Positions 1 to 46,094 of a stretch of DNA of 64,000 nucleotides are shown piece by piece (within the stretch, counting starts at the first letter, position 1; the number at the start of each line of letters is the position of its first letter). This DNA comes from Escherichia coli (GTDB lineage Bacteria > Pseudomonadota > Gammaproteobacteria > Enterobacterales > Enterobacteriaceae). The DNA lies in NCBI RefSeq assembly GCF_029227855.1, contig NZ_CP074356.1. One strand, 5' to 3'. A program made the translations under genes and the position numbers. The notes below the pieces were generated by a model. The model ran no database searches, was not told the origin of the DNA, and saw nothing but the letters and a program-made list of their open reading frames with translations.

Positions 1-1015
1 ACAGGTCTATATGCAACTGCTGAATAAAGAGCAGGAGCTGAAAATCACCGAAGCCAGCACCGTCGGCGATGTGCGCATTGTTGACCCGGCAATCACCCAG
101 CCTGGCGTGCTAAAACCGAAGAAAGGGCTGATTATCCTCGGCGCGATTATCCTTGGCCTGATGCTCTCTATCGTGGGTGTGCTGCTGCGCTCGTTGTTTA
201 ATCGCGGCATCGAAAGCCCGCAGGTGCTGGAAGAACACGGTATCAGCGTCTATGCCAGCATCCCGTTGTCGGAATGGCAGAAAGCGCGCGATAGCGTCAA
301 AACCATCAAAGGGATTAAACGCTATAAACAGAGCCAGCTACTGGCGGTGGGGAATCCAACCGATCTGGCGATTGAAGCCATTCGCAGTCTGCGTACCAGT
401 CTGCACTTCGCGATGATGCAGGCACAGAACAATGTGTTGATGATGACAGGGGTTAGCCCGTCAATCGGTAAAACCTTTGTCTGCGCCAACCTGGCGGCGG
501 TGATCAGCCAGACCAATAAACGGGTGTTGTTGATCGACTGCGATATGCGCAAAGGCTACACCCACGAGCTGTTGGGCACTAATAACGTTAATGGCCTGTC
601 GGAAATTCTGATTGGTCAGGGCGATATTACTACCGCTGCTAAACCGACCTCTATTGCCAAATTTGACCTGATCCCGCGCGGTCAGGTACCGCCAAATCCT
701 TCTGAACTGTTGATGAGCGAACGCTTTGCCGAACTGGTGAACTGGGCGAGTAAAAACTACGACCTGGTGTTGATTGATACGCCGCCGATTCTGGCAGTGA
801 CCGATGCCGCAATTGTTGGTCGTCATGTCGGAACCACGTTAATGGTGGCGCGTTATGCGGTCAACACATTGAAAGAAGTGGAAACCAGTCTGAGCCGCTT
901 TGAGCAAAACGGTATTCCGGTGAAAGGGGTGATTCTGAACTCCATCTTCCGCCGCGCCAGCGCGTATCAGGATTATGGCTATTACGAATACGAATATAAG
1001 TCGGACGCGAAATAA
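1..1015 (+). CDS. wzc: Tyrosine-protein kinase Wzc, C-terminal portion (5' end lies outside the window)
   Basis: ORF 11..1015 is open to the window edge; Walker A-like GVSPSIGKT and tyrosine-rich tail YQDYGYYEYEYKSDAK; matches recalled E. coli Wzc C-terminus. Confidence 0.9.
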   Translation, partial: QVYMQLLNKEQELKITEASTVGDVRIVDPAITQPGVLKPKKGLIILGAIILGLMLSIVGVLLRSLFNRGIESPQVLEEHGISVYASIPLSEWQKARDSVKTIKGIKRYKQSQLLAVGNPTDLAIEAIRSLRTSLHFAMMQAQNNVLMMTGVSPSIGKTFVCANLAAVISQTNKRVLLIDCDMRKGYTHELLGTNNVNGLSEILIGQGDITTAAKPTSIAKFDLIPRGQVPPNPSELLMSERFAELVNWASKNYDLVLIDTPPILAVTDAAIVGRHVGTTLMVARYAVNTLKEVETSLSRFEQNGIPVKGVILNSIFRRASAYQDYGYYEYEYKSDAK

Positions 1016-1021
1016 CGAGAT

Positions 1022-1082
1022 CCGCTGTCGGATGCGATGCTGACGCATCTTATCCGACCTCCGTTCACGCCGCATCCGGCAA
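1022..1082. repeat. REP-like palindromic unit in the wzc-wcaA intergenic region
   Basis: cggatgcgatgctgacgcatcttatccgac followed by ccgttcacgccgcatccggca, resembling the E. coli REP consensus with tgaacg core and gcatccggc arm. Confidence 0.5.
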
Positions 1083-1143
1083 CAGAACCCGTAAACAAGC
1101 TTATAAACCGGCAGAACATCTCGACACTCCGGGAGAACAACCT

Positions 1144-1983
1144 ATGAAAGACAATCCGCTGATCTCAATCTATATGCCGACCTGGAATCGCCAACAACTG
1201 GCGATTCGGGCGATAAAATCGGTCCTGCGCCAGGACTATAATAACTGGGAGATGATCATCGTGGATGATTGCTCCACCTCCTGGGAACAACTGCAACAGT
1301 ACGTCACCGCCCTCAACGATCCGCGTATTACTTACATTCACAACGACATAAACAGCGGGGCGTGCGCGGTACGTAACCAGGCGATTATGCTGGCGCAAGG
1401 GGAATACATCACCGGGATCGATGATGATGATGAATGGACGCCCAACCGCTTGAGCGTCTTCCTCGCCCATAAACAGCAACTGGTCACACACGCCTTTTTG
1501 TACGCTAACGACTACGTTTGCCAGGGCGAAGTCTATTCCCAACCAGCAAGTTTGCCGCTATATCCCAAATCGCCGTATTCACGCCGCCTGTTCTATAAAC
1601 GCAATATCATTGGCAATCAGGTCTTTACCTGGGCGTGGCGTTTCAAAGAGTGTTTGTTTGATACCGAACTGAAAGCGGCACAGGATTACGACATCTTCCT
1701 GCGGATGGTGGTGGAGTATGGCGAACCGTGGAAAGTGGAAGAGGCGACGCAGATCCTGCATATCAATCACGGCGAAATGCAGATCACCTCGTCACCGAAA
1801 AAATTCTCCGGATACTTCCACTTTTACCGTAAGCACAAAGACAAATTTGACCGCGCCAGCAAAAAATATCAGCTGTTTACCCTCTACCAGATCCGCAATA
1901 AACGCATGACCTGGCGCACTTTGCTGACGCTGCTGTCGGTGCGTAACGGCAAACGTCTGGCTGATGGTATTCGGGGGCGCTAA
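1144..1983 (+). CDS. wcaA: Colanic acid biosynthesis glycosyltransferase WcaA (GT2)
   Basis: 279 aa ORF; MKDNPLISIYMPTWNR N-terminus and DDD motif; position after wzc. Confidence 0.92.
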   Translation: MKDNPLISIYMPTWNRQQLAIRAIKSVLRQDYNNWEMIIVDDCSTSWEQLQQYVTALNDPRITYIHNDINSGACAVRNQAIMLAQGEYITGIDDDDEWTPNRLSVFLAHKQQLVTHAFLYANDYVCQGEVYSQPASLPLYPKSPYSRRLFYKRNIIGNQVFTWAWRFKECLFDTELKAAQDYDIFLRMVVEYGEPWKVEEATQILHINHGEMQITSSPKKFSGYFHFYRKHKDKFDRASKKYQLFTLYQIRNKRMTWRTLLTLLSVRNGKRLADGIRGR

Positions 1984-1985
1984 AG

Positions 1986-2474
1986 ATGCTGGAAGATCTG
2001 CGCGCCAACAGCTGGAGTTTACGCCCGTGCTGCATGGTTCTTGCCTATCGCGCCGCTCATTTTTGTTCGGTGTGGCGCAAAAAGAACGTTCTCAACAATA
2101 TTTGGGCGGCCCCGCTGCTGGTGCTGTATCGCATTATCACCGAATGCTTTTTCGGTTATGAAATCCAGGCAGCCGCAACCATTGGTCGCCGCTTTACTAT
2201 CCATCACGGTTACGCCGTAGTGATCAATAAAAACGTGGTTGCGGGGGATGATTTCACCATTCGCCACGGCGTCACTATCGGCAATCGTGGTGCCGATAAC
2301 ATGGCATGTCCACACATTGGCAACGGCGTCGAACTCGGTGCCAACGTCATTATTCTTGGTGATATCACGCTTGGTAACAACGTCACCGTGGGCGCGGGCA
2401 GCGTGGTGCTCGACTCTGTCCCGGACAACGCGCTGGTGGTGGGAGAAAAAGCGCGAGTGAAGGTAATTAAATGA
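1986..2474 (+). CDS. wcaB: Colanic acid biosynthesis acetyltransferase WcaB
   Basis: 162 aa ORF with hexapeptide-repeat-like C-terminus; matches recalled WcaB. Confidence 0.92.
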   Translation: MLEDLRANSWSLRPCCMVLAYRAAHFCSVWRKKNVLNNIWAAPLLVLYRIITECFFGYEIQAAATIGRRFTIHHGYAVVINKNVVAGDDFTIRHGVTIGNRGADNMACPHIGNGVELGANVIILGDITLGNNVTVGAGSVVLDSVPDNALVVGEKARVKVIK

Positions 2475-3688
2475 ATATTCTGCAATTTAATGTGCGACTG
2501 GCGGAAGGCGGTGCGGCAGGTGTGGCGTTAGATCTCCACCAGCGAGCACTGCAACAGGGGCTGGCGTCACATTTTGTCTACGGCTACGGCAAAGGCGGCA
2601 AAGAGAGCGTCAGCCATCAGAACTATCCGCAGGTCATCAAATATACGCCGCGGATGACCGCGATGGCGAATATTGCTCTGTTTCGTCTGTTTAATCGCGA
2701 TCTGTTTGGCAATTTCAATGAGTTATATCGCACCATTACTCGCACACCGGGTCCGGTGGTCCTGCATTTTCATGTGCTGCACAGCTACTGGCTAAATCTT
2801 AAGAGCGTGGTGCGCTTTTGCGAAAAGGTGAAAAACTATAAACCGGACGTCACTCTGGTCTGGACGCTGCACGACCACTGGAGCGTTACCGGACGCTGCG
2901 CCTTTACCGACGGTTGTGACGGCTGGAAAACAGGCTGCCGGAAATGCCCGACCTTAAATAATTATCCGCCGGTGAAGATTGATCGCGCACACCAGCTGGT
3001 GGCGGGCAAACGCCAGTTATTCCGTGAGATGCTGGCGCTGGGCTGTCAGTTTATTTCCCCCAGCCAGCATGTGGCTGATGCTTTCAATAGTCTGTACGGT
3101 CCAGGGCGTTGCCGGATTATCAATAATGGCATTGATATGGCAACCGAAGCGATTCTGGCGGACTTGCCTCCGGTGCGCGAAACTCAGGGCAAGCCGAAAA
3201 TCGCGGTGGTAGCGCATGACCTGCGTTACGACGGCAAGACTAACCAGCAACTGGTGCGTGAGATGATGGCGCTGGGCGACAAAATCGAACTACATACCTT
3301 CGGTAAGTTCTCGTCGTTCACCGCTGGCAACGTGGTTAATCACGGCTTTGAAACTGACAAGCGCAAGTTGATGAGCGCGCTCAATCAGATGGATGCGCTG
3401 GTATTCAGTTCTCGCGTCGATAACTACCCACTGATTTTGTGTGAGGCGCTATCGATTGGTGTGCCGGTGATTGCCACCCATAGCGACGCGGCACGTGAAG
3501 TGTTGCAAAAATCCGGCGGTAAAACCGTCAGCGAAGAAGACGTGCTGCAACTGGTGCAGTTAAGCAAACCGGAAATCGCGCAGGCGATATTTAGTACCAC
3601 GCTGGCTGAGTTCAGCCAACGCAGCCGCGTCGCCTACAGTGGACAACAGATGCTGGAGGAGTATGTCAACTTCTATCAGAATCTGTAG
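2471..3688 (+). CDS. wcaC: Colanic acid biosynthesis glycosyltransferase WcaC
   Basis: 405 aa ORF, start overlaps the wcaB stop; conserved cluster order. Confidence 0.92.
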   Translation: MNILQFNVRLAEGGAAGVALDLHQRALQQGLASHFVYGYGKGGKESVSHQNYPQVIKYTPRMTAMANIALFRLFNRDLFGNFNELYRTITRTPGPVVLHFHVLHSYWLNLKSVVRFCEKVKNYKPDVTLVWTLHDHWSVTGRCAFTDGCDGWKTGCRKCPTLNNYPPVKIDRAHQLVAGKRQLFREMLALGCQFISPSQHVADAFNSLYGPGRCRIINNGIDMATEAILADLPPVRETQGKPKIAVVAHDLRYDGKTNQQLVREMMALGDKIELHTFGKFSSFTAGNVVNHGFETDKRKLMSALNQMDALVFSSRVDNYPLILCEALSIGVPVIATHSDAAREVLQKSGGKTVSEEDVLQLVQLSKPEIAQAIFSTTLAEFSQRSRVAYSGQQMLEEYVNFYQNL

Positions 3689-4880
3689 CTACCTGCTGCT
3701 GCCGCTGATTTACCTGTTGGTTAACGTCAAAATCGCCCAGCTTGGCGAAAGTTTCCCCATCACCATCGTCACTTTTTTACCCGTCTTGTTATTGCTGTTT
3801 TTAGAACGCATCAGCGTTAAAAAATTGATGATTGCCTTAGGGATTGGCGCGGGACTCACGGCGTTTAACTACCTGTTTGGTCAGTCGTTGGATGCCAGTA
3901 AATACGTCACTTCAACCATGCTGTTTGTCTATATTGTGATCATTATTGGCATGGTGTGGAGTATTCGCTTTAAAACGATTTCGCCCCACAACCACCGCAA
4001 GATATTACGCTTTTTTTATCTGGTGGTCGGGTTGGTGGTGGCGCTGGCGGCGGTGGAGATGGCGCAAATTATCCTCACCGGTGGCAGCAGTATTATGGAG
4101 TCGATTTCAAAATATCTGATTTACAGCAACAGCTATGTACTGAATTTCATTAAATTCGGCGGCAAGCGCACGACAGCACTTTATTTCGAACCGGCATTTT
4201 TCGCTCTGGCATTAATCTCAATTTGGCTCAGCATCAAACAGTTTGGTATCAAAACCCCTAAAACCGATGCTATGATTCTCGCAGGGATAATATTATCCGG
4301 ATCGTTTTCAGGGGTTATGACCTTTATCCTGTTTTATTTGCTGGAGTGGGCATTTCAATATCTGAATAAAGAGGCGATTAAGAAAAAGTTACCGTTAGCA
4401 TTGATTTCTCTGGCTGTATTCCTGGTTGGTGTGGTAATTGCATTTCCTTATATTTCCACCCGTCTGGGCGATTTAGGTACGGAAGGATCGTCATCATATT
4501 ATCGTATTGTCGGTCCGCTGGTGATGGTCGGTTATTCTTTGACCCATATTGACGGTGTAGTCAGATTTGGCTCACTTTATGAATATGTCGCATCATTCGG
4601 AATATTTAACGGTGCGGATGTCGGAAAAACCATAGACAATGGTTTGTATCTGCTGATTATTTATTTTTCCTGGTTCGCGGTGTTTTTATCACTGTGGTAC
4701 ATGGGGAAAGTGATAAAAATGATGATCAACGCTTTTGGTGATAACCGCAATTTTCGCGTGCAATTATATCTTTTTACTCCGGTATCGCTGTTTTTTACCG
4801 GTTCGATATTTAGCCCGGAATATGCATTTTTAATCGTCTGTCCGTTTATTTTGCGAAAAGCGTTAAATATTACGAGGTAA
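3663..4880 (+). CDS. wcaD: Putative colanic acid polymerase WcaD
   Basis: Multi-pass membrane protein; start placed at internal ATG ([12 protein letters not shown]...) to give 405 aa as in K-12 WcaD. Confidence 0.88.
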
Positions 4881-4890
4881 GAATAAGAAC

Positions 4891-5637
4891 ATGTTGCTTA
4901 GCATAATCACTGTCGCGTTTCGTAACCTCGCAGGGATAGTCAAAACACACGCCTCGCTGGCGCATCTGGCGCAGGCGGACGATATCAGCTTCGAATGGAT
5001 TGTTGTCGATGGCGGTTCCAATGACGGCACCCGTGAGTACCTGGAAAATCTCAATGGTATCTATAACCTACGCTTTGTCAGCGAGCCAGATAACGGTATC
5101 TACGACGCCATGAACAAGGGCATTGCGATGGCACAAGGCAAGTTCGCGTTGTTTCTCAACTCGGGCGATATTTTTCATCAGGATGCCGCAAATTTTGTCC
5201 GTAAGTTAAAAGTGCAAAAAGATAACGTGATGATCACCGGCGATGCGCTGCTGGATTTTGGCGACGGGCATAAGATTAAACGTAGCGCCAAACCGGGGTG
5301 GTATATTTATCACAGCCTGCCCGCCAGTCATCAGGCGATATTTTTTCCGGTATCCGGCTTGAAAAAATGGCGTTATGACCTGGAATATAAAGTTTCTTCC
5401 GACTACGCGCTGGCAGCCAAAATGTATAAAGCCGGTTATGCATTTAAAAAACTCAATGGCCTGGTGTCTGAATTTTCTATGGGTGGAGTATCTACCACCA
5501 ATAATATGGAATTATGTGCTGACGCCAAAAAAGTCCAACGGCAGATATTGCACGTGCCTGGCTTTTGGGCTGAATTATCCTGGCATTTACGCCAACGTAC
5601 TACCTCAAAGACGAAAGCCTTATATAACAAAAGCTGA
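4891..5637 (+). CDS. wcaE: Colanic acid biosynthesis glycosyltransferase WcaE
   Basis: 248 aa ORF; GT2-like; conserved position. Confidence 0.9.
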
Positions 5638-5652
5638 ATATAAGGGAAAACG

Positions 5653-6201
5653 ATGCAGGATTTAAGTGGTTTCTCGGTGCCGAAAGGGTTCCGGGGCGGC
5701 AACGCTATTAAAGTGCAATTGTGGTGGGCGGTACAGGCAACATTATTTGCCTGGTCGCCACAAGTATTGTATCGCTGGCGGGCATTTTTATTACGTTTAT
5801 TCGGCGCAAAAATAGGAAAAAACGTAGTTATTCGTCCGTCAGTAAAAATTACCTATCCGTGGAAATTAACCTTAGGTGATTACGCGTGGGTCGGCGATGA
5901 CGTCAATTTATATACCCTCGGTGAAATAACCATTGGCGCACATTCGGTGATATCGCAAAAAAGTTATTTATGCACCGGGAGCCACGACCATGCAAGTCAA
6001 CATTTCACCATTAACGCCACGCCTATTGTGATTGGCGAGAAATGCTGGCTGGCGACAGATGTTTTTGTTGCCCCAGGCGTCACGATTGGCGACGGCACCG
6101 TCGTGGGTGCACGAAGCAGTGTTTTTAAATCGCTCCCGGCAAATGTGGTTTGCCGGGGGAATCCCGCAGTGGTGATACGCGAACGCGTTGAAACTGAATA
6201 A
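5653..6201 (+). CDS. wcaF: Colanic acid biosynthesis acetyltransferase WcaF
   Basis: 182 aa ORF with left-handed beta-helix hexapeptide repeats. Confidence 0.9.
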   Translation: MQDLSGFSVPKGFRGGNAIKVQLWWAVQATLFAWSPQVLYRWRAFLLRLFGAKIGKNVVIRPSVKITYPWKLTLGDYAWVGDDVNLYTLGEITIGAHSVISQKSYLCTGSHDHASQHFTINATPIVIGEKCWLATDVFVAPGVTIGDGTVVGARSSVFKSLPANVVCRGNPAVVIRERVETE

Positions 6202-6227
6202 ATTCAAAAAATACAGAGGAATAAGAC

Positions 6228-7349
6228 ATGTCAAAAGTCGCTCTCATCACCGGTGTAACCGGACAAGACGGTTCTTACCTGGCAGAGTTTCTGCTGGAAA
6301 AAGGTTACGAGGTGCATGGTATTAAGCGTCGCGCATCGTCATTCAACACCGAGCGCGTGGATCACATTTATCAGGATCCGCACACCTGCAACCCGAAATT
6401 CCATCTGCATTATGGCGACCTGAGTGATACCTCCAACCTGACGCGCATTTTGCGTGAAGTGCAGCCGGATGAAGTGTACAACCTGGGCGCAATGAGCCAC
6501 GTTGCGGTTTCTTTTGAGTCACCGGAATATACCGCAGACGTCGATGCGATGGGTACGCTGCGCCTGCTCGAGGCGATCCGCTTCCTCGGTCTGGAAAAGA
6601 AAACCCGTTTCTATCAGGCTTCCACCTCTGAACTGTATGGTCTGGTGCAGGAAATTCCGCAGAAAGAGACCACGCCGTTCTACCCGCGATCTCCGTATGC
6701 GGTCGCCAAACTGTACGCCTACTGGATCACCGTTAACTACCGCGAATCCTACGGCATGTACGCCTGTAACGGTATTCTCTTCAACCATGAATCCCCGCGC
6801 CGCGGCGAAACCTTCGTTACCCGCAAAATCACCCGCGCAATCGCCAACATCGCCCAGGGGCTGGAATCGTGCCTGTACCTCGGCAATATGGATTCCCTGC
6901 GTGACTGGGGCCACGCCAAAGACTACGTAAAAATGCAGTGGATGATGCTGCAACAGGAACAGCCGGAAGATTTCGTTATCGCGACCGGCGTTCAGTACTC
7001 CGTACGTCAGTTCGTGGAAATGGCGGCAGCACAGCTGGGCATCAAACTGCGCTTTGAAGGCACGGGTGTTGAAGAGAAGGGCATTGTGGTTTCCGTCACC
7101 GGGCATGACGCGCCGGGCGTTAAACCGGGCGATGTGATTATCGCCATTGATCCGCGTTACTTCCGTCCGGCAGAAGTTGAAACGCTGCTCGGTGACCCGA
7201 CCAAAGCGAACGAAAAACTGGGCTGGAAACCGGAAATCACCCTCAGAGAGATGGTGTCTGAAATGGTGGCTAATGACCTCGAAGCGGCGAAAAAACACTC
7301 TCTGCTGAAATCTCACGGCTACGACGTGGCGATCGCGCTGGAGTCATAA
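6228..7349 (+). CDS. gmd: GDP-mannose 4,6-dehydratase
   Basis: 373 aa ORF; N-terminal Rossmann motif [19 protein letters not shown]; matches recalled Gmd. Confidence 0.95.
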
Positions 7350-7351
7350 GC

Positions 7352-8317
7352 ATGAGTAGACAACGCATTTTTATCGCTGGCCATCGCGGGATGGTCGGTT
7401 CTGCCATCAGGCGGCAGCTCGAACAGCGCGGTGATGTGGAACTGGTATTACGCACCCGCGACGAGCTGAACCTGCTGGACAGCCGCGCGGTGCATGATTT
7501 CTTTGCCAGCGAACGTATTGACCAGGTCTATCTGGCGGCGGCGAAAGTGGGCGGCATTGTTGCCAACAACACGTATCCGGCGGATTTCATCTACCAGAAC
7601 ATGATGATTGAGAGCAACATCATTCACGCCGCGCATCAGAACGACGTGAACAAACTGCTGTTTCTCGGATCGTCCTGTATCTACCCGAAACTGGCAAAAC
7701 AGCCGATGGCAGAAAGCGAGTTATTGCAGGGTACGCTGGAGCCGACCAACGAGCCTTATGCCATTGCCAAAATCGCTGGGATCAAACTGTGCGAATCTTA
7801 CAACCGCCAGTATGGACGCGATTACCGCTCGGTCATGCCGACCAACCTGTATGGCCCGCATGACAACTTCCACCCGAGTAATTCGCATGTGATCCCAGCA
7901 TTGCTGCGTCGCTTCCACGAGGCGACGGCACAGAATGCGCCGGACGTGGTGGTGTGGGGCAGCGGTACACCGATGCGTGAATTTCTGCACGTCGATGATA
8001 TGGCGGCGGCAAGCATTCATGTGATGGAGCTGGCGCACGAAGTCTGGCTGGAAAACACCCAGCCGATGTTGTCGCACATTAACGTCGGCACGGGCGTTGA
8101 CTGCACCATCCGTGAACTGGCGCAAACCATCGCCAAAGTGGTGGGTTACAAAGGTCGGGTGGTTTTTGATGCCAGCAAACCGGATGGCACACCGCGCAAA
8201 CTGCTGGATGTGACGCGCCTGCATCAGCTTGGCTGGTATCACGAAATCTCACTGGAAGCGGGGCTTGCCAGCACTTACCAGTGGTTCCTTGAGAATCAAG
8301 ACCGCTTTCGGGGGTAA
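7352..8317 (+). CDS. fcl: GDP-L-fucose synthase (GDP-4-keto-6-deoxymannose 3,5-epimerase/4-reductase)
   Basis: 321 aa ORF; [16 protein letters not shown]-terminus; follows gmd. Confidence 0.95.
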
Positions 8318-8319
8318 TG

Positions 8320-8799
8320 ATGTTTTTACGTCAGGAAGACTTTGCCACGGTAGTGCGCTCCACTCCGCTTGTCTCTCTCGACTTTATTGTTGAGAACAGT
8401 CGCGGCGAGTTTCTGCTTGGCAAAAGAACCAACCGCCCGGCGCAGGGTTACTGGTTTGTGCCGGGAGGGCGCGTGCAGAAAGACGAAACGCTGGAAGCCG
8501 CATTTGAGCGGCTGACGATGGCGGAACTGGGGCTGCGTCTGCCGATAACAGCAGGCCAGTTTTACGGTGTCTGGCAGCACTTTTATGACGATAACTTCTC
8601 CGGCACGGATTTCACCACTCACTATTTGGTGCTCGGTTTTCGCTTCAGAGTAGCGGAAGAAGAGCTGTTACTGCCGGATGAGCAGCATGACGATTACCGC
8701 TGGCTGACGCCGGACGCACTGCTCGCCAGTGACAATGTTCACGCTAACAGCCGCGCCTATTTTCTCGCTGAGAAGCGTGCCGGAGTACCCGGATTATGA
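8320..8799 (+). CDS. gmm: GDP-mannose mannosyl hydrolase (Nudix)
   Basis: 159 aa from [12 protein letters not shown]; Nudix fold; position after fcl. Confidence 0.9.
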
Positions 8800-10019
8800 A
8801 AATACTGGTCTACGGCATTAACTACTCGCCGGAGTTAACCGGCATCGGCAAATACACCGGAGAGATGGTGGAATGGCTTGCGGCACAAGGTCATGAGGTG
8901 CGGGTCATAACCGCACCGCCTTACTACCCGCAGTGGCAGGTGGGCGAGAACTATTCCGCCTGGCGCTACAAACGAGAAGAGGGGGCCGCCACGGTGTGGC
9001 GCTGCCCGCTGTACGTGCCAAAACAGCCGAGCACCCTGAAACGCTTGTTGCATCTCGGCAGTTTTGCCGTCAGCAGTTTTTTCCCGTTGATGGCGCAACG
9101 TCGCTGGAAGCCGGATCGCATTATTGGCGTGGTGCCAACGCTGTTTTGCACGCCGGGAATGCGCCTGCTGGCGAAACTCTCTGGCGCGCGTACCGTGCTG
9201 CATATTCAGGATTACGAAGTGGACGCCATGCTGGGGCTGGGCCTTGCCGGAAAAGGCAAAGGCGGCAAAGTGGCACAGCTGGCGACGGCGTTCGAACGTA
9301 GCGGACTGCATAACGTCGATAACGTCTCCACGATTTCGCGCTCGATGATGAATAAAGCCATCGAAAAAGGCGTGGCGGCGGAAAACGTCATCTTCTTCCC
9401 CAACTGGTCGGAAATCGCCCGTTTTCAATATGTTGCAGACGCCGATGTTGATGCCCTTCGTAACCAGCTTGGCCTGCCGGATAACAAAAAAATCATTCTT
9501 TACTCCGGCAATATTGGTGAAAAGCAGGGGCTGGAAAACGTTATTGAAGCTGCCGATCACCTGCGCGATGAACCGCTGATTTTTGCCATTGTCGGGCAGG
9601 GCGGCGGCAAAGCGCGGCTGGAAAAAATGGCGCAGCAGCGCGGACTGCGCAACATGCAATTTTTTCCGCTGCAATCGTATGACGCTTTACCCGCACTGCT
9701 GAAGATGGGCGATTGCCATCTGGTGGTGCAAAAACGCGGCGCGGCAGATGCCGTATTGCCGTCGAAACTGACCAATATTCTGGCGGTAGGCGGTAACGCG
9801 GTGATTACCGCAGAAGCCCACACCGAACTGGGGCAGCTTTGCGAAACCTTTCCGGGCATTGCGGTTTGCGTAGAGCCGGAATCGGTCGAGGCGCTGGTGG
9901 CGGGGATCCGTCAGGCGCTCCTGCTGCCCAAACACAACACGGTGGCATGTGAATATGCCGAACGCACGCTCGATAAAGAGAACGTGTTACGTCAATTTAT
10001 AAATGATATTCGGGGATAA
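8796..10019 (+). CDS. wcaI: Colanic acid biosynthesis glycosyltransferase WcaI (GT4)
   Basis: 407 aa ORF; GT4 architecture; conserved position. Confidence 0.92.
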
Positions 10020-10021
10020 TT

Positions 10022-11458: not shown

Positions 11459-11558
11459 CCGTTGAATAATCAACCGGATTAATTCTCCGGTAAATAACGA
11501 AAAAACAAAATTGGCCGCTTCGGTCAGGGCCAACTATTGCCTGAAAAAGGGTAACGAT

Positions 11559-12929
11559 ATGAAAAAATTAACCTGCTTTAAAGCCTATGATATTCGCGGG
11601 AAATTAGGCGAAGAACTGAATGAAGATATTGCCTGGCGTATTGGGCGTGCCTATGGCGAATTTCTCAAACCGAAAACCATTGTGTTAGGCGGTGATGTCC
11701 GCCTCACCAGCGAAACCTTAAAACTGGCGCTGGCAAAAGGTTTACAGGATACGGGCGTCGATGTGCTGGATATTGGCATGTCCGGCACCGAAGAGATCTA
11801 TTTCGCCACGTTCCATCTCGGCGTGGCTGGCGGCATTGAAGTTACCGCCAGCCATAACCCGATGGATTACAACGGCATGAAACTGGTGCGCGAAGGGGCT
11901 CGCCCGATCAGCGGCGATACCGGACTGCGCGACGTCCAGCGTCTGGCAGAAGCCAATGACTTCCCTCCTGTCGATGAAACCAAACGCGGTCGCTATCAGC
12001 AAATCAATCTGCGTGACGCTTACGTTGATCACCTGTTCGGCTATATCAACGTCAAAAACCTCACGCCGCTCAAGCTGGTGATCAACTCCGGGAACGGCGC
12101 GGCGGGGCCGGTGGTGGACGCCATTGAAGCTCGCTTTAAAGCCCTCGGCGCACCCGTGGAATTGATCAAAGTGCACAACACGCCGGACGGGAATTTCCCC
12201 AACGGTATACCTAACCCGCTGCTGCCGGAATGTCGCGACGACACCCGCAATGCGGTCATCAAACACGGCGCGGATATGGGCATTGCTTTTGATGGCGATT
12301 TTGACCGCTGCTTCCTGTTTGACGAAAAAGGGCAGTTTATCGAGGGCTACTACATTGTCGGCCTGCTGGCAGAAGCGTTCCTCGAAAAAAATCCCGGCGC
12401 GAAGATCATCCACGATCCACGTCTCTCCTGGAACACCGTTGATGTGGTGACTGCCGCTGGCGGCACGCCGGTGATGTCGAAAACCGGACACGCCTTTATT
12501 AAAGAACGTATGCGCAAGGAAGACGCCATCTACGGTGGCGAAATGAGCGCTCACCATTACTTCCGCGATTTCGCTTACTGTGACAGCGGCATGATCCCGT
12601 GGCTGCTGGTCGCCGAACTGGTGTGCCTGAAAGGAAAAACGCTGGGCGAACTGGTGCGCGACCGGATGGCGGCGTTTCCGGCAAGCGGTGAGATCAACAG
12701 CAAACTGGCACACCCCGTTGAGGCGATTAACCGCGTGGAACAGCATTTTAGCCGTGAGGCGCTGGCGGTGGATCGCACCGATGGCATCAGCATGACCTTT
12801 GCCGACTGGCGCTTTAACCTGCGCTCCTCCAACACCGAACCGGTGGTGCGGTTGAATGTGGAATCGCGCGGCGATGTACCGCTGATGGAAGCGCGAACGC
12901 GAACTCTGCTGACGTTGCTGAACGAGTAA
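11559..12929 (+). CDS. manB: Phosphomannomutase
   Basis: 456 aa from [14 protein letters not shown]; active-site TASHNP motif; the ORF track's upstream start at 11511 is a likely over-extension. Confidence 0.93.
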
Positions 12930-12983
12930 TGTCGGATCTTCCCTTACCCCACTGCGGGTAAGGGGCTAATAACAGGAACAACG

Positions 12984-14378
12984 ATGACAAATCTAAAAAA
13001 GCGCGAGCGAGCGAAAACCAATGCATCGTTAATCTCTATGGTGCAACGCTTTTCAGATATCACCATCATGTTTGCCGGGCTATGGCTGGTTTGCGAAGTC
13101 AGCGGACTGTCATTCCTCTACATGCACCTGTTGGTGGCGCTGATTACGCTGGTGGTGTTCCAGATGCTGGGCGGCATCACCGATTTTTATCGCTCATGGC
13201 GCGGTGTTCGGGCAGCGACAGAATTTGCCCTGCTGCTACAAAACTGGACCTTAAGCGTGATTTTCAGCGCCGGACTGGTGGCGTTCAACAATGATTTCGA
13301 CACGCAACTGAAAATCTGGCTGGCGTGGTATGGGCTGACCAGCATCGGACTGGTGGTTTGCCGTTCGTGTATTCGCATTGGTGCGGGCTGGCTGCGTAAT
13401 CATGGCTATAACAAGCGCATGATTGCGGTGGCGGGGGATTTAGCCGCCGGACAAATGCTGCTTGAGAGCTTCCGTAATCAGCCGTGGTTAGGGTTTGAAG
13501 TGGTGGGCGTTTACCACGACCCGAAACCGGGTGGCGTTTCTAACGACTGGGCGGGTAATCTGCAACAGCTGGTCGAGGATGCGAAAGCGGGCAAGATTCA
13601 TAACGTCTATATCGCGATGCAAATGTGCGACGGCGCACGAGTGAAAAAACTGGTCCATCAACTGGCGGATACCACCTGTTCGGTGCTGCTGATCCCCGAT
13701 GTCTTTACCTTCAACATTCTCCATTCCCGTATCGAAGAGATGAACGGCGTACCGGTGGTGCCGCTGTATGACACGCCGCTTTCCGGGGTTAACCGCCTGC
13801 TCAAACGTGCGGAAGATATTGTGCTGGCGACGCTTATCCTGCTGCTGATCTCCCCGGTGCTGTGCTGCATTGCGCTGGCGGTAAAACTGAGCTCACCGGG
13901 GCCGGTTATTTTCCGCCAGACTCGCTACGGCATGGATGGCAAGCCGATCAAAGTGTGGAAGTTCCGTTCTATGAAAGTGATGGAGAACGACAAAGTGGTG
14001 ACTCAGGCGACGCAGAACGATCCGCGCGTTACTAAAGTGGGGAACTTTCTGCGCCGCACTTCGCTGGATGAACTGCCGCAGTTTATCAATGTGCTGACTG
14101 GCGGGATGTCGATTGTGGGGCCACGTCCGCACGCCGTGGCGCATAACGAACAATATCGCCAGCTCATTGAAGGCTACATGCTGCGCCATAAGGTGAAACC
14201 GGGCATTACCGGCTGGGCGCAGATTAATGGCTGGCGTGGCGAAACCGACACGCTGGAGAAAATGGAAAAACGCGTCGAGTTCGACCTTGAGTACATCCGC
14301 GAATGGAGCGTCTGGTTCGATATCAAAATCGTTTTCCTGACGGTATTCAAAGGCTTCGTTAACAAAGCGGCATATTGA
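12984..14378 (+). CDS. wcaJ: UDP-glucose:undecaprenyl-phosphate glucose-1-phosphate transferase WcaJ
   Basis: 464 aa membrane protein with C-terminal bacterial sugar-transferase domain (PRPHAVAHNEQY...). Confidence 0.93.
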   Translation: MTNLKKRERAKTNASLISMVQRFSDITIMFAGLWLVCEVSGLSFLYMHLLVALITLVVFQMLGGITDFYRSWRGVRAATEFALLLQNWTLSVIFSAGLVAFNNDFDTQLKIWLAWYGLTSIGLVVCRSCIRIGAGWLRNHGYNKRMIAVAGDLAAGQMLLESFRNQPWLGFEVVGVYHDPKPGGVSNDWAGNLQQLVEDAKAGKIHNVYIAMQMCDGARVKKLVHQLADTTCSVLLIPDVFTFNILHSRIEEMNGVPVVPLYDTPLSGVNRLLKRAEDIVLATLILLLISPVLCCIALAVKLSSPGPVIFRQTRYGMDGKPIKVWKFRSMKVMENDKVVTQATQNDPRVTKVGNFLRRTSLDELPQFINVLTGGMSIVGPRPHAVAHNEQYRQLIEGYMLRHKVKPGITGWAQINGWRGETDTLEKMEKRVEFDLEYIREWSVWFDIKIVFLTVFKGFVNKAAY

Positions 14379-14379
14379 T

Positions 14380-15858
14380 ATGAGCTTACGTGAAAAAACC
14401 ATCACCGGCGCGAAGTGGTCGGCGATTGCCACGGTGATCATCATCGGCCTCGGGTTGGTGCAGATGACCGTGCTGGCGCGGATTATCGACAACCACCAGT
14501 TCGGCCTGCTTACCGTGTCTCTGGTGATTATCGCGCTGGCAGATACGCTTTCTGACTTCGGTATCGCTAACTCGATTATTCAGCGAAAAGAAATCAGCCA
14601 CCTTGAACTCACCACGTTGTACTGGTTGAACGTCGGGCTGGGGCTTGTGGTGTGCGTGGCGGTGTTTTTGTTGAGTGATGCCATTGGCGACATGCTGAAT
14701 AACCCGGACCTGGCACCGTTGATTAAAACATTGTCGCTGGCGTTTGTGGTGATCCCCCACGGGCAGCAGTTCCGCGCGTTGATGCAAAAAGAGCTGGAGT
14801 TCAACAAAATTGGCATGATCGAAACCAGCGCGGTGCTGGCGGGCTTCACTTTTACTGTGGTTAGCGCCCATTTCTGGCCGCTGGCAATGACTGCGATCCT
14901 CGGTTATCTGGTCAATAGTGCGGTAAGAACGCTGCTGTTTGGCTACTTTGGCCGCAAAATTTATCGCCCCGGTCTGCACTTCTCGCTGGCGTCGGTAGCA
15001 CCGAACTTACATTTTGGTGCCTGGCTGACGGCGGACAGCATCATCAACTATCTCAACACCAACCTTTCAACGCTGGTGCTGGCGCGTATTCTCGGCGCGG
15101 GCGTGGCAGGGGGATACAACCTGGCGTACAACGTGGCCATTGTGCCGCCGATGAAGCTGAACCCAATCATCACCCGCGTGTTGTTTCCGGCATTTGCCAA
15201 AATTCAGGACGACACCGAAAAGCTGCGCGTCAACTTCTACAAGCTGCTGTCGGTGGTGGGGATTATCAACTTTCCGGCGCTGCTGGGGCTGATGGTGGTG
15301 TCGAATAACTTTGTACCGCTGGTCTTTGGTGAGAAGTGGAACAGCATTATTCCGGTGCTGCAATTGCTGTGTGTGGTGGGTCTGCTGCGTTCCGTGGGTA
15401 ACCCGATTGGTTCGCTGCTGATGGCTAAAGCGCGGGTCGATATCAGCTTTAAATTCAACGTATTCAAAACCTTTCTGTTTATTCCGGCGATTGTTATAGG
15501 TGGGCAGATGGCGGGCGCAATCGGCGTCACGCTCGGCTTCCTGCTGGTGCAGATTATCAACACCATTCTGAGCTATTTCGTGATGATTAAACCGGTTCTT
15601 GGTTCCAGTTATCGCCAGTACATCCTGAGTTTATGGCTGCCGTTTTATCTCTCGCTGCCGACGCTGGTGGTCAGTTATGCGCTGGGCATTGTGCTGAAAG
15701 GGCAACTGGCGCTGGGGATGCTGCTGGCGGTGCAAATAGCCGCGGGCGTGCTGGCGTTTGTGGTGATGATTGTGCTGTCGCGCCATCCGCTGGTGGTGGA
15801 GGTGAAGCGTCAGTTTTGTCGCAGCGAAAAAATGAAAATGCTTTTACGGGCGGGGTGA
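14380..15858 (+). CDS. wzxC: Colanic acid repeat-unit flippase WzxC
   Basis: 492 aa polytopic membrane protein; position after wcaJ. Confidence 0.92.
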   Translation: MSLREKTITGAKWSAIATVIIIGLGLVQMTVLARIIDNHQFGLLTVSLVIIALADTLSDFGIANSIIQRKEISHLELTTLYWLNVGLGLVVCVAVFLLSDAIGDMLNNPDLAPLIKTLSLAFVVIPHGQQFRALMQKELEFNKIGMIETSAVLAGFTFTVVSAHFWPLAMTAILGYLVNSAVRTLLFGYFGRKIYRPGLHFSLASVAPNLHFGAWLTADSIINYLNTNLSTLVLARILGAGVAGGYNLAYNVAIVPPMKLNPIITRVLFPAFAKIQDDTEKLRVNFYKLLSVVGIINFPALLGLMVVSNNFVPLVFGEKWNSIIPVLQLLCVVGLLRSVGNPIGSLLMAKARVDISFKFNVFKTFLFIPAIVIGGQMAGAIGVTLGFLLVQIINTILSYFVMIKPVLGSSYRQYILSLWLPFYLSLPTLVVSYALGIVLKGQLALGMLLAVQIAAGVLAFVVMIVLSRHPLVVEVKRQFCRSEKMKMLLRAG

Positions 15859-15929
15859 ATGGTTGTTTTAGGCTCCGGCAATAAAAACAACAACATAACC
15901 TCACCTGGCACCAAATTTATGAGGAAAAA

Positions 15930-17210
15930 ATGAAATTACTGATTCTGGGCAACCACACTTGCGGCAACCGCGGCGACAGCGCCATCTTGCGCGGCTTACT
16001 TGATGCCATCAACATCCTCAATCCACATGCCGAAGTGGACGTAATGAGCCGCTATCCGGTCAGTTCTTCCTGGCTGCTCAACCGCCCGGTAATGGGCGAT
16101 CCGCTGTTCCTGCAAATGAAACAACACAACAGCGCGGCGGGCGTTGTCGGGCGCGTTAAAAAAGTCCTCCGTCGCCGCTACCAGCATCAGGTATTGCTCT
16201 CACGCGTCACCGACACTGGCAAGCTGCGTAATATCGCCATCGCCCAGGGATTCACCGACTTCGTGCGCTTGCTGTCAGGTTACGACGCCATTATTCAGGT
16301 CGGCGGATCGTTTTTTGTCGATCTCTATGGTGTGCCGCAGTTTGAACACGCACTTTGCACGTTTATGGCGAAAAAGCCGCTGTTTATGATTGGTCACAGC
16401 GTCGGTCCCTTCCTGGATGAGCAATTTAACCAACTGGCAAACTACGTTTTTGGTCACTGCGACGCGCTGATCCTGCGCGAATCGGTCAGCCTTGATTTGA
16501 TGAAACGCAGCAATATCACTACCGCAAAAGTTGAACATGGCGTCGATACCGCGTGGCTGGTCGATCACCACATAGAAGATTTCACCGCCAGCTATGCCGT
16601 CCAACACTGGCTGGACGTTGCCGCACAACAGAAAACGGTAGCAATTACCTTGCGCGAACTGGCACCGTTCGACAAACGTCTCGGCACCACTCAACAAGCG
16701 TATGAAAAAGCCTTTGCCGGGGTGGTCAATCACATTCTCGACGAAGGGTATCAGGTGATTGCGCTCTCCACCTGTACGGGCATCGACAGCTATAACAAAG
16801 ACGACCGCATGGTGGCGCTCAACCTGCGCCAGCACATCAGCGATCCTGCCCGTTACCACGTAGTGATGGATGAACTCAACGATCTGGAAATGGGCAAAAT
16901 TCTCGGTGCCTGTGAACTCACCGTCGGCACGCGCCTGCACTCAGCCATTATCTCGATGAACTTTGCCACTCCGGCGATTGCCATCAACTACGAACATAAA
17001 TCCGCCGGGATCATGCAGCAGTTGGGGCTGCAAGAGATGGCGATTGATATCCGTCATTTACTGGACGGCAGCTTGCAAGCGATGGTTGCGGATACCTTAG
17101 GCCAGCTTCCGGTGCTGAACGCACGACTTAGCGAAGCCGTCAGTCGTGAGCGTCAGACAGGAATGCAGATGGTGCAGTCCGTACTGGAACGCATCGGGGA
17201 GGTGAAATGA
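15930..17210 (+). CDS. wcaK: Colanic acid biosynthesis pyruvyl transferase WcaK
   Basis: 426 aa ORF; matches recalled WcaK. Confidence 0.9.
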   Translation: MKLLILGNHTCGNRGDSAILRGLLDAINILNPHAEVDVMSRYPVSSSWLLNRPVMGDPLFLQMKQHNSAAGVVGRVKKVLRRRYQHQVLLSRVTDTGKLRNIAIAQGFTDFVRLLSGYDAIIQVGGSFFVDLYGVPQFEHALCTFMAKKPLFMIGHSVGPFLDEQFNQLANYVFGHCDALILRESVSLDLMKRSNITTAKVEHGVDTAWLVDHHIEDFTASYAVQHWLDVAAQQKTVAITLRELAPFDKRLGTTQQAYEKAFAGVVNHILDEGYQVIALSTCTGIDSYNKDDRMVALNLRQHISDPARYHVVMDELNDLEMGKILGACELTVGTRLHSAIISMNFATPAIAINYEHKSAGIMQQLGLQEMAIDIRHLLDGSLQAMVADTLGQLPVLNARLSEAVSRERQTGMQMVQSVLERIGEVK

Positions 17211-18427
17211 AGGTCGGCTTCTTTTTACTGAAATTCCCGCTGTCTTCGGAAACCTTCGTCCTCAACCAAATCACTGCGTTTATTGATATGGGCTTTGAGG
17301 TGGAGATTGTCGCGCTGCAAAAAGGCGATACAGAGAACACCCACGCGGCATGGACGAAATACAACCTTGCCGCCAGAACCCGCTGGTTACAGGACGAACC
17401 TACGGGCAAAGTGGCGAAGCTGCGCCACCGCGTCAGCCAGACGTTACGTGGCATTCATCGTAAAAATACCTGGCAGGCGCTCAACCTCAAACGCTATGGT
17501 GCCGAGTCGCGGAACCTGATTTTGTCTGCCATTTGCGGCCAGGTCGCAACACCGTTTCGCGCCGATGTGTTCATCGCTCATTTTGGCCCGGCGGGGGTAA
17601 CCGCAGCAAAACTACGGGAACTGGGTGTCATTCGCGGCAAAATTGCCACTATCTTCCACGGCATTGATATCTCCAGTCGGGAAGTGCTCAACCACTACAC
17701 TCCCGAATATCAGCAACTGTTCCGCCGTGGCGACCTGATGCTACCGATCAGCGATCTTTGGGCCGGAAGGCTGCAAAAAATGGGCTGCCCGAGGGAAAAA
17801 ATTGCCGTATCGCGCATGGGCGTGGACATGACGCGCTTTAGCCCGCGTCCGGTGAAAGCGCCCGCAACGCCGCTGGAAATCATATCCGTCGCACGCTTAA
17901 CCGAGAAAAAAGGTCTGCATGTAGCGATTGAAGCCTGCCGTCAGTTGAAAGAGCAGGGCGTGGCATTTCGTTATCGCATCCTCGGCATTGGCCCGTGGGA
18001 ACGACGCCTGCGCACCCTCATCGAACAATATCAACTGGAAGATGTGGTAGAGATGCCGGGCTTTAAACCGAGCCACGAAGTGAAAGAGATGCTCGATGAC
18101 GCGGATGTTTTCCTGCTGCCTTCGGTAACGGGTGCGGATGGCGATATGGAAGGCATTCCAGTGGCGCTAATGGAAGCGATGGCGGTCGGCATTCCGGTGG
18201 TTTCTACTCTGCATAGCGGAATACCGGAACTAGTGGAGGCTGACAAATCCGGCTGGCTGGTGCCTGAGAACGATGCTCGCGCACTGGCACAACGTCTGGC
18301 GGCATTTAGCCAACTGGACACTGACGAACTGGCTCCGGTCGTCAAACGTGCGCGCGAAAAAGTCGAACACGATTTTAACCAGCAGGTGATTAATCGAGAA
18401 CTCGCCAGTTTGTTACAGGCTTTATAG
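17207..18427 (+). CDS. wcaL: Colanic acid biosynthesis glycosyltransferase WcaL (GT4)
   Basis: 406 aa ORF; start overlaps wcaK stop. Confidence 0.9.
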
Positions 18428-18437
18428 AGGAGAACGC

Positions 18438-19832
18438 ATGCCATTTAAAAAACTCTCCCGACGCACCTTCCTGACGGCAAGCTCGGCGCTTGCCTTCCTC
18501 CATACCCCTTTCGCCCGTGCACTTCCTGCCCGAGCAAGCGTTAACATTAACGATTACAATCCACACGACTGGATTGCTTCATTTAAACAAGCCTTCAGCG
18601 AAGGGCAAACGGTCGTCGTGCCTGCCGGATTGGTTTGCGACAATATCAACACCGACATCTTCATTCCTGCAGGTAAAACGTTACACATCCTTGGAAGCCT
18701 GCGCGGCAACGGCAGAGGGCGATTTGTCTTACAGGACGGCAGCCAGGTGACAGGGGAGGAGGGCGGCAGTATGCATAACATCACCCTGGATGTGCGTGGT
18801 TCTGACTGCACCATCAAAGGGCTGGCGATGAGCGGCTTTGGTCCGGTAACGCAGATTTATATCGGCGGCAAAAACAAACGGGTCATGCGCAACCTGACCA
18901 TCGATAACCTGACCGTTAGCCACGCTAATTACGCCATCTTACGCCAGGGATTTCATAACCAGATTATCGGTGCCAACATCACCAACTGTAAGTTCAGCGA
19001 CTTACAGGGCGACGCCATTGAATGGAACGTGGCGATTAACGACCGTGATATTTTGATATCCGACCACATCATCGAGCGCATCAACTGTACCAACGGCAAA
19101 ATCAACTGGGGCATCGGCATAGGCCTTGCGGGGAGTACTTATGATAATAACTACCCGGAAGACCAGGCAGTGAAAAACTTTGTCGTGGCGAATATCACGG
19201 GATCGGATTGTCGACAGTTGATCCATGTTGAAAATGGTAAACATTTTGTTATTCGTAATATCAAAGCCCGCAATATCACGCCGGATTTCAGTAAGAAAGC
19301 AGGTATTGATAACGCCACAGTTGCTATTTATGGTTGTGACAACTTTGTGATTGATAATATTGAAATGATTAATAGTGCCGGGATGTTAATCGGCTATGGG
19401 GTAATTAAAGGCAAATATCTCTCGATACCGCAGAATTTCCGGGTGAATAATATTCAACTGGATAATACTCATCTTGCTTATAAATTGCGCGGCATTCAAA
19501 TCTCCGCCGGGAATGCTGTCTCCTTTGTGGCGCTGACTAACATTGAGATGAAGCGTGCCTCGCTTGAGCTACACAATAAACCGCAACACCTTTTTATGCG
19601 TAATATCAAGGTGATGCAGGAATCCGCAGTTGGACCCGCATTGAGCATGAACTTCGACATGCGCAAAGACGTTCGCGGCGTGTTTATGGCGAAAAAAGAA
19701 ACACTGCTATCTCTTGCAAATGTTCATGCGGTGAATGAAAAAGGACAAAGCTCGGTCGATATCGACAGGATTAATCACCATATTGTTAATGTGGAAAAGA
19801 TTAACTTTAGATTGCCGGAACGGAGAGAGTAG
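18438..19832 (+). CDS. wcaM: Colanic acid biosynthesis protein WcaM (twin-arginine-type signal, predicted beta-helix)
   Basis: 464 aa ORF; N-terminus [15 protein letters not shown] resembles a Tat signal; last gene of the cluster. Confidence 0.9.
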
Positions 19833-20006
19833 ATTTGCGACCATTCCTGGAAAAATGGAGCCATACTTAGGAACAATGCTACTGCAATCCACAACGAAGC
19901 GGCGTAACATTACAAGTAATTCAGTAATCAATTCAGGGTAATTGATGCTGGCGAAAAAAATCGAACAAGCTATAATTCAGCAACCATTTTACAGGTGGAT
20001 GAAATA

Positions 20007-20900
20007 ATGACGAATTTAAAAGCAGTTATTCCTGTAGCGGGTCTTGGGATGCATATGTTGCCTGCCACTAAGGCGATTCCCAAAGAGATGCTACCCATCG
20101 TCGACAAGCCAATGATTCAGTACATTGTTGACGAGATTGTGGCTGCAGGGATCAAAGAAATCCTCCTGGTAACTCACGCGTCCAAGAACGCGGTCGAAAA
20201 CCACTTCGACACCTCTTATGAATTAGAATCTCTCCTTGAGCAGCGCGTGAAGCGTCAACTGCTTGCGGAAGTGCAGTCCATCTGTCCTCCGGGCGTGACC
20301 ATTATGAACGTGCGTCAGGGCGAACCTTTAGGTTTAGGCCACTCCATTTTATGTGCACGACCTGCTATTGGTGACAACCCATTTGTCGTGGTGCTGCCAG
20401 ACGTTGTGATCGACGACGCGAGTGCCGACCCGCTGCGTTACAACCTTGCTGCCATGATTGCGCGCTTCAACGAAACGGGCCGCAGCCAGGTGCTGGCAAA
20501 ACGTATGCCGGGTGACCTCTCTGAATACTCTGTCATCCAGACCAAAGAGCCGCTGGACCGTGAAGGTAAGGTCAGCCGCATTGTTGAATTTATCGAAAAA
20601 CCAGATCAGCCGCAGACGCTGGACTCAGACATCATGGCCGTTGGCCGCTATGTGCTTTCTGCCGATATTTGGCCGGAGCTAGAACGCACTCAGCCTGGTG
20701 CATGGGGACGTATCCAACTGACAGATGCTATTGCCGAACTGGCGAAAAAACAGTCCGTTGAAGCCATGCTGATGACCGGCGACAGTTACGACTGCGGTAA
20801 AAAAATGGGTTATATGCAAGCGTTCGTGAAGTATGGACTACGCAACCTGAAAGAAGGGGCGAAGTTCCGTAAAGGGATTGAGAAGCTGTTAAGCGAATAA
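20007..20900 (+). CDS. galF: UTP-glucose-1-phosphate uridylyltransferase regulatory subunit GalF
   Basis: 297 aa from [30 protein letters not shown]; matches recalled GalF. Confidence 0.95.
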
Positions 20901-21157
20901 TGAAAATCTAACCGAATGTAACGGTTGATAAGAAAATTGTAACGGCAGTGAGGATTCGTGGCGAAAGTAATTGTTGCGAATATTCCTGCCGTTGTTTTAT
21001 ATAAACAATCAGAATAACAACGAGTTAGCAATAGGATTTTAGTCAAAGTTTTCCAGGATTTTCCTTGTTTCCAGAGCGGATTGGTAAGACAATTAGCGTT
21101 TGAATTTTTCGGGTTTAGCGCGAGTGGGTAACGCTCGTCACATCGTAGACATGCATG

Positions 21158-21196
21158 CAGTACTCTGGTAGCTGTAAAGCCAGGGGCGGTAGCGTG
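21158..21196 (+). promoter_or_regulatory. JUMPStart element with ops (RfaH-dependent antitermination) upstream of the O-antigen cluster
   Basis: cagtactctggtagctgtaaagccaggggcggtagcgtg contains the ops core GGCGGTAGCGTG at 21185..21196. Confidence 0.85.
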
Positions 21197-21336
21197 TCTA
21201 GTTCAATCCGAGTAAATTAAAAATAATAGTTTTGGAAAAATTGTCTTTATAATGTTAACAAAGCAAGAGTAGGTAATACATATCGTTTTGACATGTATTG
21301 CACTTAAAGAAAACATATCAATTAAATTATCATACT

Positions 21337-27129: not shown

Positions 27130-27159
27130 TATATAGATTAACATCTACCGGAGTGTTTT

Positions 27160-40551: not shown

Positions 40552-40564
40552 AGAGGAGATTGAT

Positions 40565-46052: not shown

Positions 46053-46056
46053 CTCA

Positions 46057-46090: not shown

Positions 46091-46094
46091 CACA

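Follow-up and report, generated by a model that had tools for sequence, protein, structure and literature searches.

The colanic acid (M-antigen) operon of Escherichia coli has the gene order wza-wzb-wzc-wcaABCDEF-gmd-fcl-gmm-wcaI-cpsB-cpsG-wcaJ-wzxC-wcaKLM and is followed by galF; in K-12 MG1655 it extends from b2062 (wza) to b2043 (wcaM), with galF as b2042. The locus described here occupies positions 1-20900 of a 64,000-nucleotide stretch of another E. coli chromosome (NCBI RefSeq assembly GCF_029227855.1, contig NZ_CP074356.1); this whole stretch is called the window. It is almost certain that positions 1-20900 hold an intact and ordinary E. coli colanic acid operon, represented by its distal 85%, together with galF, and that the block is a recombination mosaic whose right end lies in the tract of the O23 O-antigen genes. 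The cluster itself is already known, and it leaves the current view of colanic acid biosynthesis unchallenged.

The roles given to the single proteins are those of the established Wzx/Wzy-dependent scheme for colanic acid, with the enzymes named as in the RefSeq entry for K-12. CpsG and CpsB lead to GDP-mannose, which Gmd and Fcl transform into GDP-L-fucose, while GDP-mannose hydrolysis is due to Gmm. Assembly begins with WcaJ, which transfers glucose-1-phosphate onto undecaprenyl phosphate; a hexasaccharide is then completed by WcaI (fucose), WcaE (fucose), WcaC (galactose), WcaA (glucuronate) and WcaL (galactose), with acetylation by WcaF and WcaB and pyruvylation by WcaK. The hexasaccharide unit is flipped by WzxC and polymerised by WcaD, with Wzc, Wzb and Wza in charge of polymerisation control and export; as for WcaM, we know of no role for it. 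Transcription starts from one RcsAB-activated promoter upstream of wza, and read-through is ensured by RfaH/JUMPstart antitermination.

The requirement of the Rcs phosphorelay, acting upstream of wza, for colanic acid expression has been documented, and the complete wza-wcaM cluster counts 20 genes (PMC9143390). Regarding the exchange of the adjacent O-antigen locus, the published O-antigen switches have crossovers in wcaJ, wzxC or wcaK on one side and in his on the other, and spacers that vary in their repetitive extragenic palindromic (REP) units are found near the junctions (PMC5359238; PMC3158064).

Identity and integrity of the colanic acid block

The six-frame list of open reading frames (ORFs) for positions 1-23000 contains an unbroken plus-strand series with the sizes of the K-12 colanic acid proteins. 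The ORF map, the Prokaryotic Genome Annotation Pipeline (PGAP) annotation of an identical record and the K-12 record give 17 genes from wcaA to wcaM, all on the plus strand and in an order identical to that of MG1655; a first-pass annotation of the window had this order right and counted 19 genes. It had also called the cluster complete, a word that does not hold within the window because wza, wzb and the first 383 wzc codons (53% of wzc) lie upstream: the window opens at codon 384 of 720, and the partial gene ends with its stop at 1015. At the other end, the galF stop falls at 20900; galF is outside the colanic acid operon and forms the left flank of the O-antigen locus. The features of the block, with the evidence for each, are the following.

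1-1015, plus strand: wzc 3′ part (C-terminal 337 codons and stop), tyrosine autokinase/co-polymerase; PGAP, NCBIfam NF008568 profile positions 384-720 of 720, 0 amino acid differences from K-12
1016-1143, unstranded: wzc-wcaA spacer with REP-family palindromic units; K-12 alignment, REP matches, hairpin fold
1144-1983, plus strand: wcaA, glucuronosyltransferase, 279 amino acids; TIGR04017 and NF007453 above cut-off
1986-2474, plus strand: wcaB, acetyltransferase, 162 amino acids; NF007564, 361 bits vs cut-off 196
2471-3688, plus strand: wcaC, galactosyltransferase, 405 amino acids; TIGR04015, 883.6 bits vs cut-off 784.85
3663-4880, plus strand: wcaD, colanic acid polymerase (Wzy-type), 405 amino acids; TIGR04010, 0 amino acid differences from K-12
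4891-5637, plus strand: wcaE, fucosyltransferase, 248 amino acids; TIGR04009
5653-6201, plus strand: wcaF, acetyltransferase, 182 amino acids; TIGR04008
6228-7349, plus strand: gmd, GDP-mannose 4,6-dehydratase, 373 amino acids; TIGR01472
7352-8317, plus strand: fcl (wcaG), GDP-L-fucose synthase, 321 amino acids; NF047922
8320-8799, plus strand: gmm (wcaH), GDP-mannose mannosyl hydrolase, 159 amino acids; NF011963
8796-10019, plus strand: wcaI, fucosyltransferase, 407 amino acids; TIGR04007, 896 bits vs cut-off 800
10022-11458, plus strand: cpsB (manC), mannose-1-phosphate guanylyltransferase, 478 amino acids; NF012004
11505-11554, plus strand: algC RNA motif (Rfam RF02929), candidate cis-regulatory element; covariance-model score
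11559-12929, plus strand: cpsG (manB), phosphomannomutase, 456 amino acids; NF011943
12940-12965, plus strand: 10-bp perfect hairpin in the cpsG-wcaJ spacer; fold of -17.1 kcal/mol
12984-14378, plus strand: wcaJ, initiating undecaprenyl-phosphate glucose-1-phosphate transferase, 464 amino acids; NF007518
14380-15858, plus strand: wzxC, colanic acid repeat-unit flippase, 492 amino acids, chimeric allele; NF007773, junction map
15309-15573, unstranded: left junction interval of the ~24-kb tract shared with strain GMF065 (see the next section); mismatch map, 500-bp identity table
15930-17210, plus strand: wcaK, pyruvyl transferase, 426 amino acids; TIGR04006
17207-18427, plus strand: wcaL, glycosyltransferase, 406 amino acids; TIGR04005
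18438-19832, plus strand: wcaM, colanic acid protein, 464 amino acids; NF007517 and TIGR04004
20007-20900, plus strand: galF, UTP-glucose-1-phosphate uridylyltransferase-like, 297 amino acids; TIGR01105, 687 bits vs cut-off 659
21158-21196, plus strand: JUMPstart element with the operon polarity suppressor (ops; GGCGGTAGCGTG), leader of the O-antigen operon; Rfam RF01707, 60 bits vs gathering score 35

All 18 complete coding sequences (CDS) have exactly the length of their K-12 counterparts, start with ATG and are free of internal stops, as the first-pass annotation had stated for protein lengths and reading frames; the encoded proteins differ from those of K-12 by 0-12 amino acids each. Every one of the 18 proteins gives a full-length match above the curated cut-off to its own NCBIfam equivalog or subfamily model, and the coding fraction of the block is 97.1%. 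Neither insertion sequence (IS) elements nor rearrangements, truncations or frameshifts were found in positions 1-20900, and so rearranged or truncated genes in the alignment with K-12, the outcome that had been named as speaking against an intact block, were not seen. The ratio of nonsynonymous to synonymous divergence (dN/dS) from K-12 is 0.039 overall (dS 0.137, dN 0.0054); the genes are under strong purifying selection. As for the expected near-identity with K-12, collinearity was confirmed but near-identity was not, as the genes are clearly different alleles, with 94.7-98.2% nucleotide identity each and 96.27% over 21,195 aligned bases.

A megablast search with the block covered 5,426 complete E. 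coli genomes. A single chromosome, that of E. coli JNEC-KY178 (NZ_AP045174.1), in which PGAP names every gene, matches positions 1-20900 without any base difference; 4,675 records match at 95-99% identity, and at least 80% of the block is present in one collinear place in 4,668 of the genomes. Separately, megablast returned nothing at all for the colanic acid block in 554 of the 5,426 genomes, and in another 204 no collinear copy reaches 80% coverage.

The missing upstream part can be followed in JNEC-KY178, where yegH-wza precedes the block: wza, wzb and wzc are intact, with 0, 0 and 3 amino acid differences from K-12, and a JUMPstart element (57.3 bits) is placed 179 bp upstream of wza, in a leader identical to K-12 at 601 of 659 columns. 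Downstream of galF, the window itself continues with a JUMPstart element, the O-antigen cluster, gnd, ugd, wzzB and his. The chromosomal site, between yegH/asmA and galF/O-antigen cluster/gnd/his, is that of K-12, its upstream side being taken from the identical genome. These neighbours, and the 100% identity to an E. coli chromosome, bear out the earlier assignment of the window to an Escherichia-type chromosome with a colanic acid (wca/cps) cluster followed by galF.

Regarding how unusual the alleles are, the 5-kb pieces of the left part reach best non-self identities of 98.0%, 99.0% and 97.9%, and at a control locus (46000-51000), 25 kb away, the best value is again 99.0%. An exotic cps allele or an unusually divergent cluster was considered and dropped, the control locus peaking at 99.0% alike; the strain belongs to a sparsely sampled lineage. 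The wca block assigns the window to the chromosome of an O23 E. coli lineage with few sampled members and is the left anchor of its O-antigen locus.

Recombination mosaic and alternative explanations

After the identical chromosome, the next best genome is that of strain GMF065 (NZ_CM183923.1), with 98.1% identity over positions 1-20900 and an O-antigen cluster of the O23 family as well. Its differences from the window, mapped base by base and with a table of identities in 500-bp windows, are unevenly distributed.

Start to 15309: 10-41 mismatches per kb
15310 to 21632: only 15573, 15576 and 16414
About 15577 to 39471: about 9 differences, leaving aside a 705-bp IS200C insertion (29760-30464)
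39 to 51 kb: 3-28 mismatches per kb

The dense mismatches stop at 15309, inside wzxC, where identity passes from 96-99% to about 100% and is kept to hisG; the right junction is at about 39472, in hisG. About 9 differences inside, set against 1-4% divergence in the flanks, mean that the two strains share a recent origin for about 24 kb of sequence. This tract comprises the 3′ end of wzxC, wcaK, wcaL, wcaM, galF, the O23 cluster, gnd, ugd, wzzB and the his genes from hisI to hisD/G. The region from 15.3-15.6 kb to about 39.5 kb is an O-antigen-linked homologous recombination tract of a known type, and the last four genes of the colanic acid cluster (from inside wzxC) arrived, with galF, together with the O23 O-antigen genes; the wzxC allele is chimeric because the junction falls inside the gene. 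WcaL, WcaM and GalF are identical to the GMF065 proteins. In addition, dS against K-12 is 0.196 for wcaK, 0.244 for wcaL, 0.197 for wcaM and 0.223 for galF, compared with 0.06-0.18 in the left part, and the segment from wcaK to the O23 genes is found at 80% coverage or more in 19 of the 5,426 genomes.

A second, smaller recombination patch is present at 12501-14500, comprising the 3′ end of cpsG and wcaJ: here the window and an O158:H23 strain (NZ_CP076709.1) have 99.4-100% identity, with adjacent 500-bp windows at 95-97%, and the WcaJ protein has the same accession in both strains.

Chi sites (GCTGGTGG) occur on the plus strand at 15663 and 15789, 90-480 bp to the right of the left junction interval; there are six in the 20.9-kb block and 12 in the window, 11 of these on the plus strand. 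A Chi-guided crossover is not claimed: such proximity would arise by chance in about 10-20% of cases (a rough estimate), and no Chi site is near the right junction.

The mosaic changes what the block can be used for. The first-pass annotation had proposed it as a compositional baseline for the AT-rich O-antigen genes, and on average the contrast stands, with a guanine-cytosine (GC) content of 0.524 for positions 1-20900 vs 0.310 for the O23 O-antigen genes (21337-28179). Within the cluster, however, composition is heterogeneous, from 0.423 (wcaD), 0.469 (wcaE), 0.473 (wcaM) and 0.486 (wcaF) up to 0.545-0.560 for gmd, fcl, gmm, wcaI, cpsB and cpsG, and its right-hand 5.5 kb shares the history of the O-antigen block. 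The GC values of wca genes in other strains are nearly equal to these (PMC5359238). The compositional boundary, at about 21.2 kb after galF and the JUMPstart element, is therefore not the historical boundary of the exchanged DNA, which is 5.5 kb further left, inside wzxC; only positions 1-15.3 kb of the wca block should serve as "native backbone" in compositional or phylogenetic work.

The assumption implicit in such a baseline is that the whole block is a uniform, vertically inherited backbone and that only the AT-rich O-antigen genes were exchanged. It would account for the sharp fall in GC only after galF and the JUMPstart element, and for a gene order that is universal; it is very improbable in view of the jump to about 100% identity with GMF065 5.5 kb before that fall, the wcaJ patch and the rise in dS from wcaK to galF (0.20-0.24 when rounded), and the diverged flanks show that GMF065 and this strain are not near-identical genome-wide. 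A related Wzy-dependent capsule locus, such as an E. coli group 1 K-antigen or another enterobacterial cps locus, would have wzc, gmd, fcl, manB, manC and a WcaJ-type initiating transferase in common with the colanic acid operon, so a partial view could mislead. The chance that this is such a locus is practically nil: WcaA, B, C, D, E, F, I, K, L and M are all above equivalog cut-offs, and the block is 95-100% identical in nucleotides to E. coli wca clusters, that of K-12 included.

More weight is due to the explanation that the cluster is structurally intact and functionally impaired or silent, through missense changes, such as those in WcaC or the recombinant WzxC, or through faulty regulation from outside the window, although we still judge it improbable. 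WcaC is a lineage-specific allele with seven substitutions (H58Y, H123Y, E150D, Q157R, P282S, G375S and A387V) that are absent from four reference strains, namely, K-12, GMF065, the O158:H23 strain and strain 144, and the best non-self nucleotide identity of wcaC is 97.9% among the 5,426 genomes; WzxC is a recombinant allele, and the promoter region is outside the window. On the other side, 32 of the 41 nucleotide differences between this wcaC and that of K-12 are at third codon positions, with a dN/dS of 0.078; with this bias and a profile score above the equivalog cut-off, the gene appears to be under clear constraint. No stop or frameshift is present, and the upstream region, with its JUMPstart element, wza and wzb, is intact in the identical genome. 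An intact, ordinary operon with a mosaic right end thus remains the preferred explanation, and the points that weigh against it are the WcaC allele just described, the reliance on JNEC-KY178 (which differs from the window at six sites elsewhere) for the promoter, wza, wzb and the 5′ half of wzc, and the tract itself, whose donor and recipient are indistinguishable from two genomes. Finally, that the strain produces colanic acid is something we infer from its genes, as a phenotype is not readable from sequence; the support that the dN/dS of 0.039 lends to it is indirect.

Spacers, RNA motifs and the rest of the window

The earlier statement that no insertions are visible is right for the genes and fails for two spacers. 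The one between wzc and wcaA is 128 bp long, against 92 bp in K-12, and its REP-family units differ, some being extra; it has 20-24 nt matches to the REP array of the K-12 wzxC-wcaK spacer, and its hairpin fold is of -36.6 kcal/mol (z = -2.4). The wzxC-wcaK spacer (15859-15929) is instead 71 bp long, against 275 bp, because the 204-bp REP array of K-12 is absent here; in the O158:H23 strain this spacer has an intermediate size, 160 bp. A REP consensus, looked for across the window with as many as 3 mismatches tolerated, gave no match, and the REP relationship of the wzc-wcaA spacer is based on its short matches to the K-12 array. As for the other spacers, that between cpsG and wcaJ (54 bp) is identical to K-12, and its 10-bp hairpin, which has no T-run, was not called as a terminator; the wcaM-galF spacer is conserved with K-12.

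Two Rfam elements at the gathering threshold were found in or next to positions 1-20900, the algC motif and JUMPstart. The algC motif scores 77.3 bits against a gathering score of 33.8, covers the full length of the model (positions 1-52 of 52) and ends 4 nt before the cpsG ATG (11559). The cpsB-cpsG spacer was compared among five strains: its 3′ 60 nt, which contain the motif, are almost invariant, and its 5′ 45 nt exist in two unrelated forms. We know of no demonstrated function for the algC RNA motif. It is conceivable, if rather doubtful, that it works as a cis-regulator of phosphomannomutase translation, and hence of GDP-mannose/GDP-fucose supply, independently of the remaining Rcs-driven genes, for instance through a switch between hairpins that mask the Shine-Dalgarno region and hairpins that expose it. 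The source paper of this curated Rfam family (PMC5737381) leaves the motif unmentioned in its main text.

JUMPstart stands between galF and the first O-antigen gene; K-12 conservation reaches this point, and unrelated sequence follows directly after. Regarding transcription signals, a consensus scan of positions 1-20000 gave 11 promoter-like sites, compared with 18.0 ± 4.4 in shuffled sequences, and 27 terminator-like sites, compared with 23.5 ± 5.6; neither value is above chance, which is consistent with one long transcription unit. A division into sub-operons with internal promoters and terminators is unsupported, promoter-like sites being fewer than in the shuffles and terminator-like sites at chance level.

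Beyond galF, the window has further features. The O23-family O-antigen cluster (21337-28179) encodes Wzy, a GT2 glycosyltransferase (GT), Wzx, a GT32, a GT, a GT4 and a GalE-like epimerase; the GT4 gene (26011-27129) is intact here and frameshifted in GMF065 by a 1-nt deletion near 26247-26254. The IS200C copy (29760-30464) is inserted between gnd and ugd, with tnpA at 29903-30361 and a match to Rfam STnc490 at 29770-29893; it is absent from the otherwise identical GMF065 tract. A yefM-yoeB toxin-antitoxin pair (40415-41072) is located between hisL and yeeZ, and the entire 658-bp segment is absent from GMF065. Finally, a propanediol-utilisation (pdu) microcompartment operon is found on the minus strand at 51347-64000, downstream of tmaR; relative to GMF065, identity is 99-100% across 51-58 kb and lower after 59.7 kb, and this fall suggests another mosaic boundary.

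Comparison with known systems

The operon of K-12 MG1655 has the same 17 wcaA-wcaM genes, with wzc and galF, in the same order, orientation and CDS lengths, and it shares with the window the algC motif, the cpsG-wcaJ hairpin spacer and the wcaM-galF spacer. It differs in its own 204-bp REP array between wzxC and wcaK, in the shorter wzc-wcaA spacer and in the 5′ half of the cpsB-cpsG spacer, which is unrelated. The adjacent O-antigen cluster is O16 in K-12 (rfb, with an IS5-disrupted wbbL) and O23 here.

JNEC-KY178, a clinical isolate from Japan, has the same O23 cluster, IS200C copy and his and pdu context. Compared with the window, it has six single-base differences, at 23162, 25730, 38322, 44906, 48822 and 50572, all outside positions 1-20900; at 44906 the window encodes Gln52 of TsuA/YeeE and JNEC-KY178 has a stop codon, so that tsuA is intact in the window and a pseudogene in that strain. 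As for GMF065, it is near-identical from about 15.6 to 39.5 kb and differs by 1-4% in the left 15.3 kb, where its wzc-wcaA spacer is of the K-12 type.

The tracts published for O157 (PMC3158064) and for O156/O182 (PMC5359238) are alike: they span tens of kb, with crossovers in the distal wca genes and in his or beyond, and have REP-variable spacers nearby. The tract described here differs from them in its serogroup, O23, and in its left junction, which is inside the wzxC CDS, about 290-550 bp before the REP-variable wzxC-wcaK spacer and not at it.

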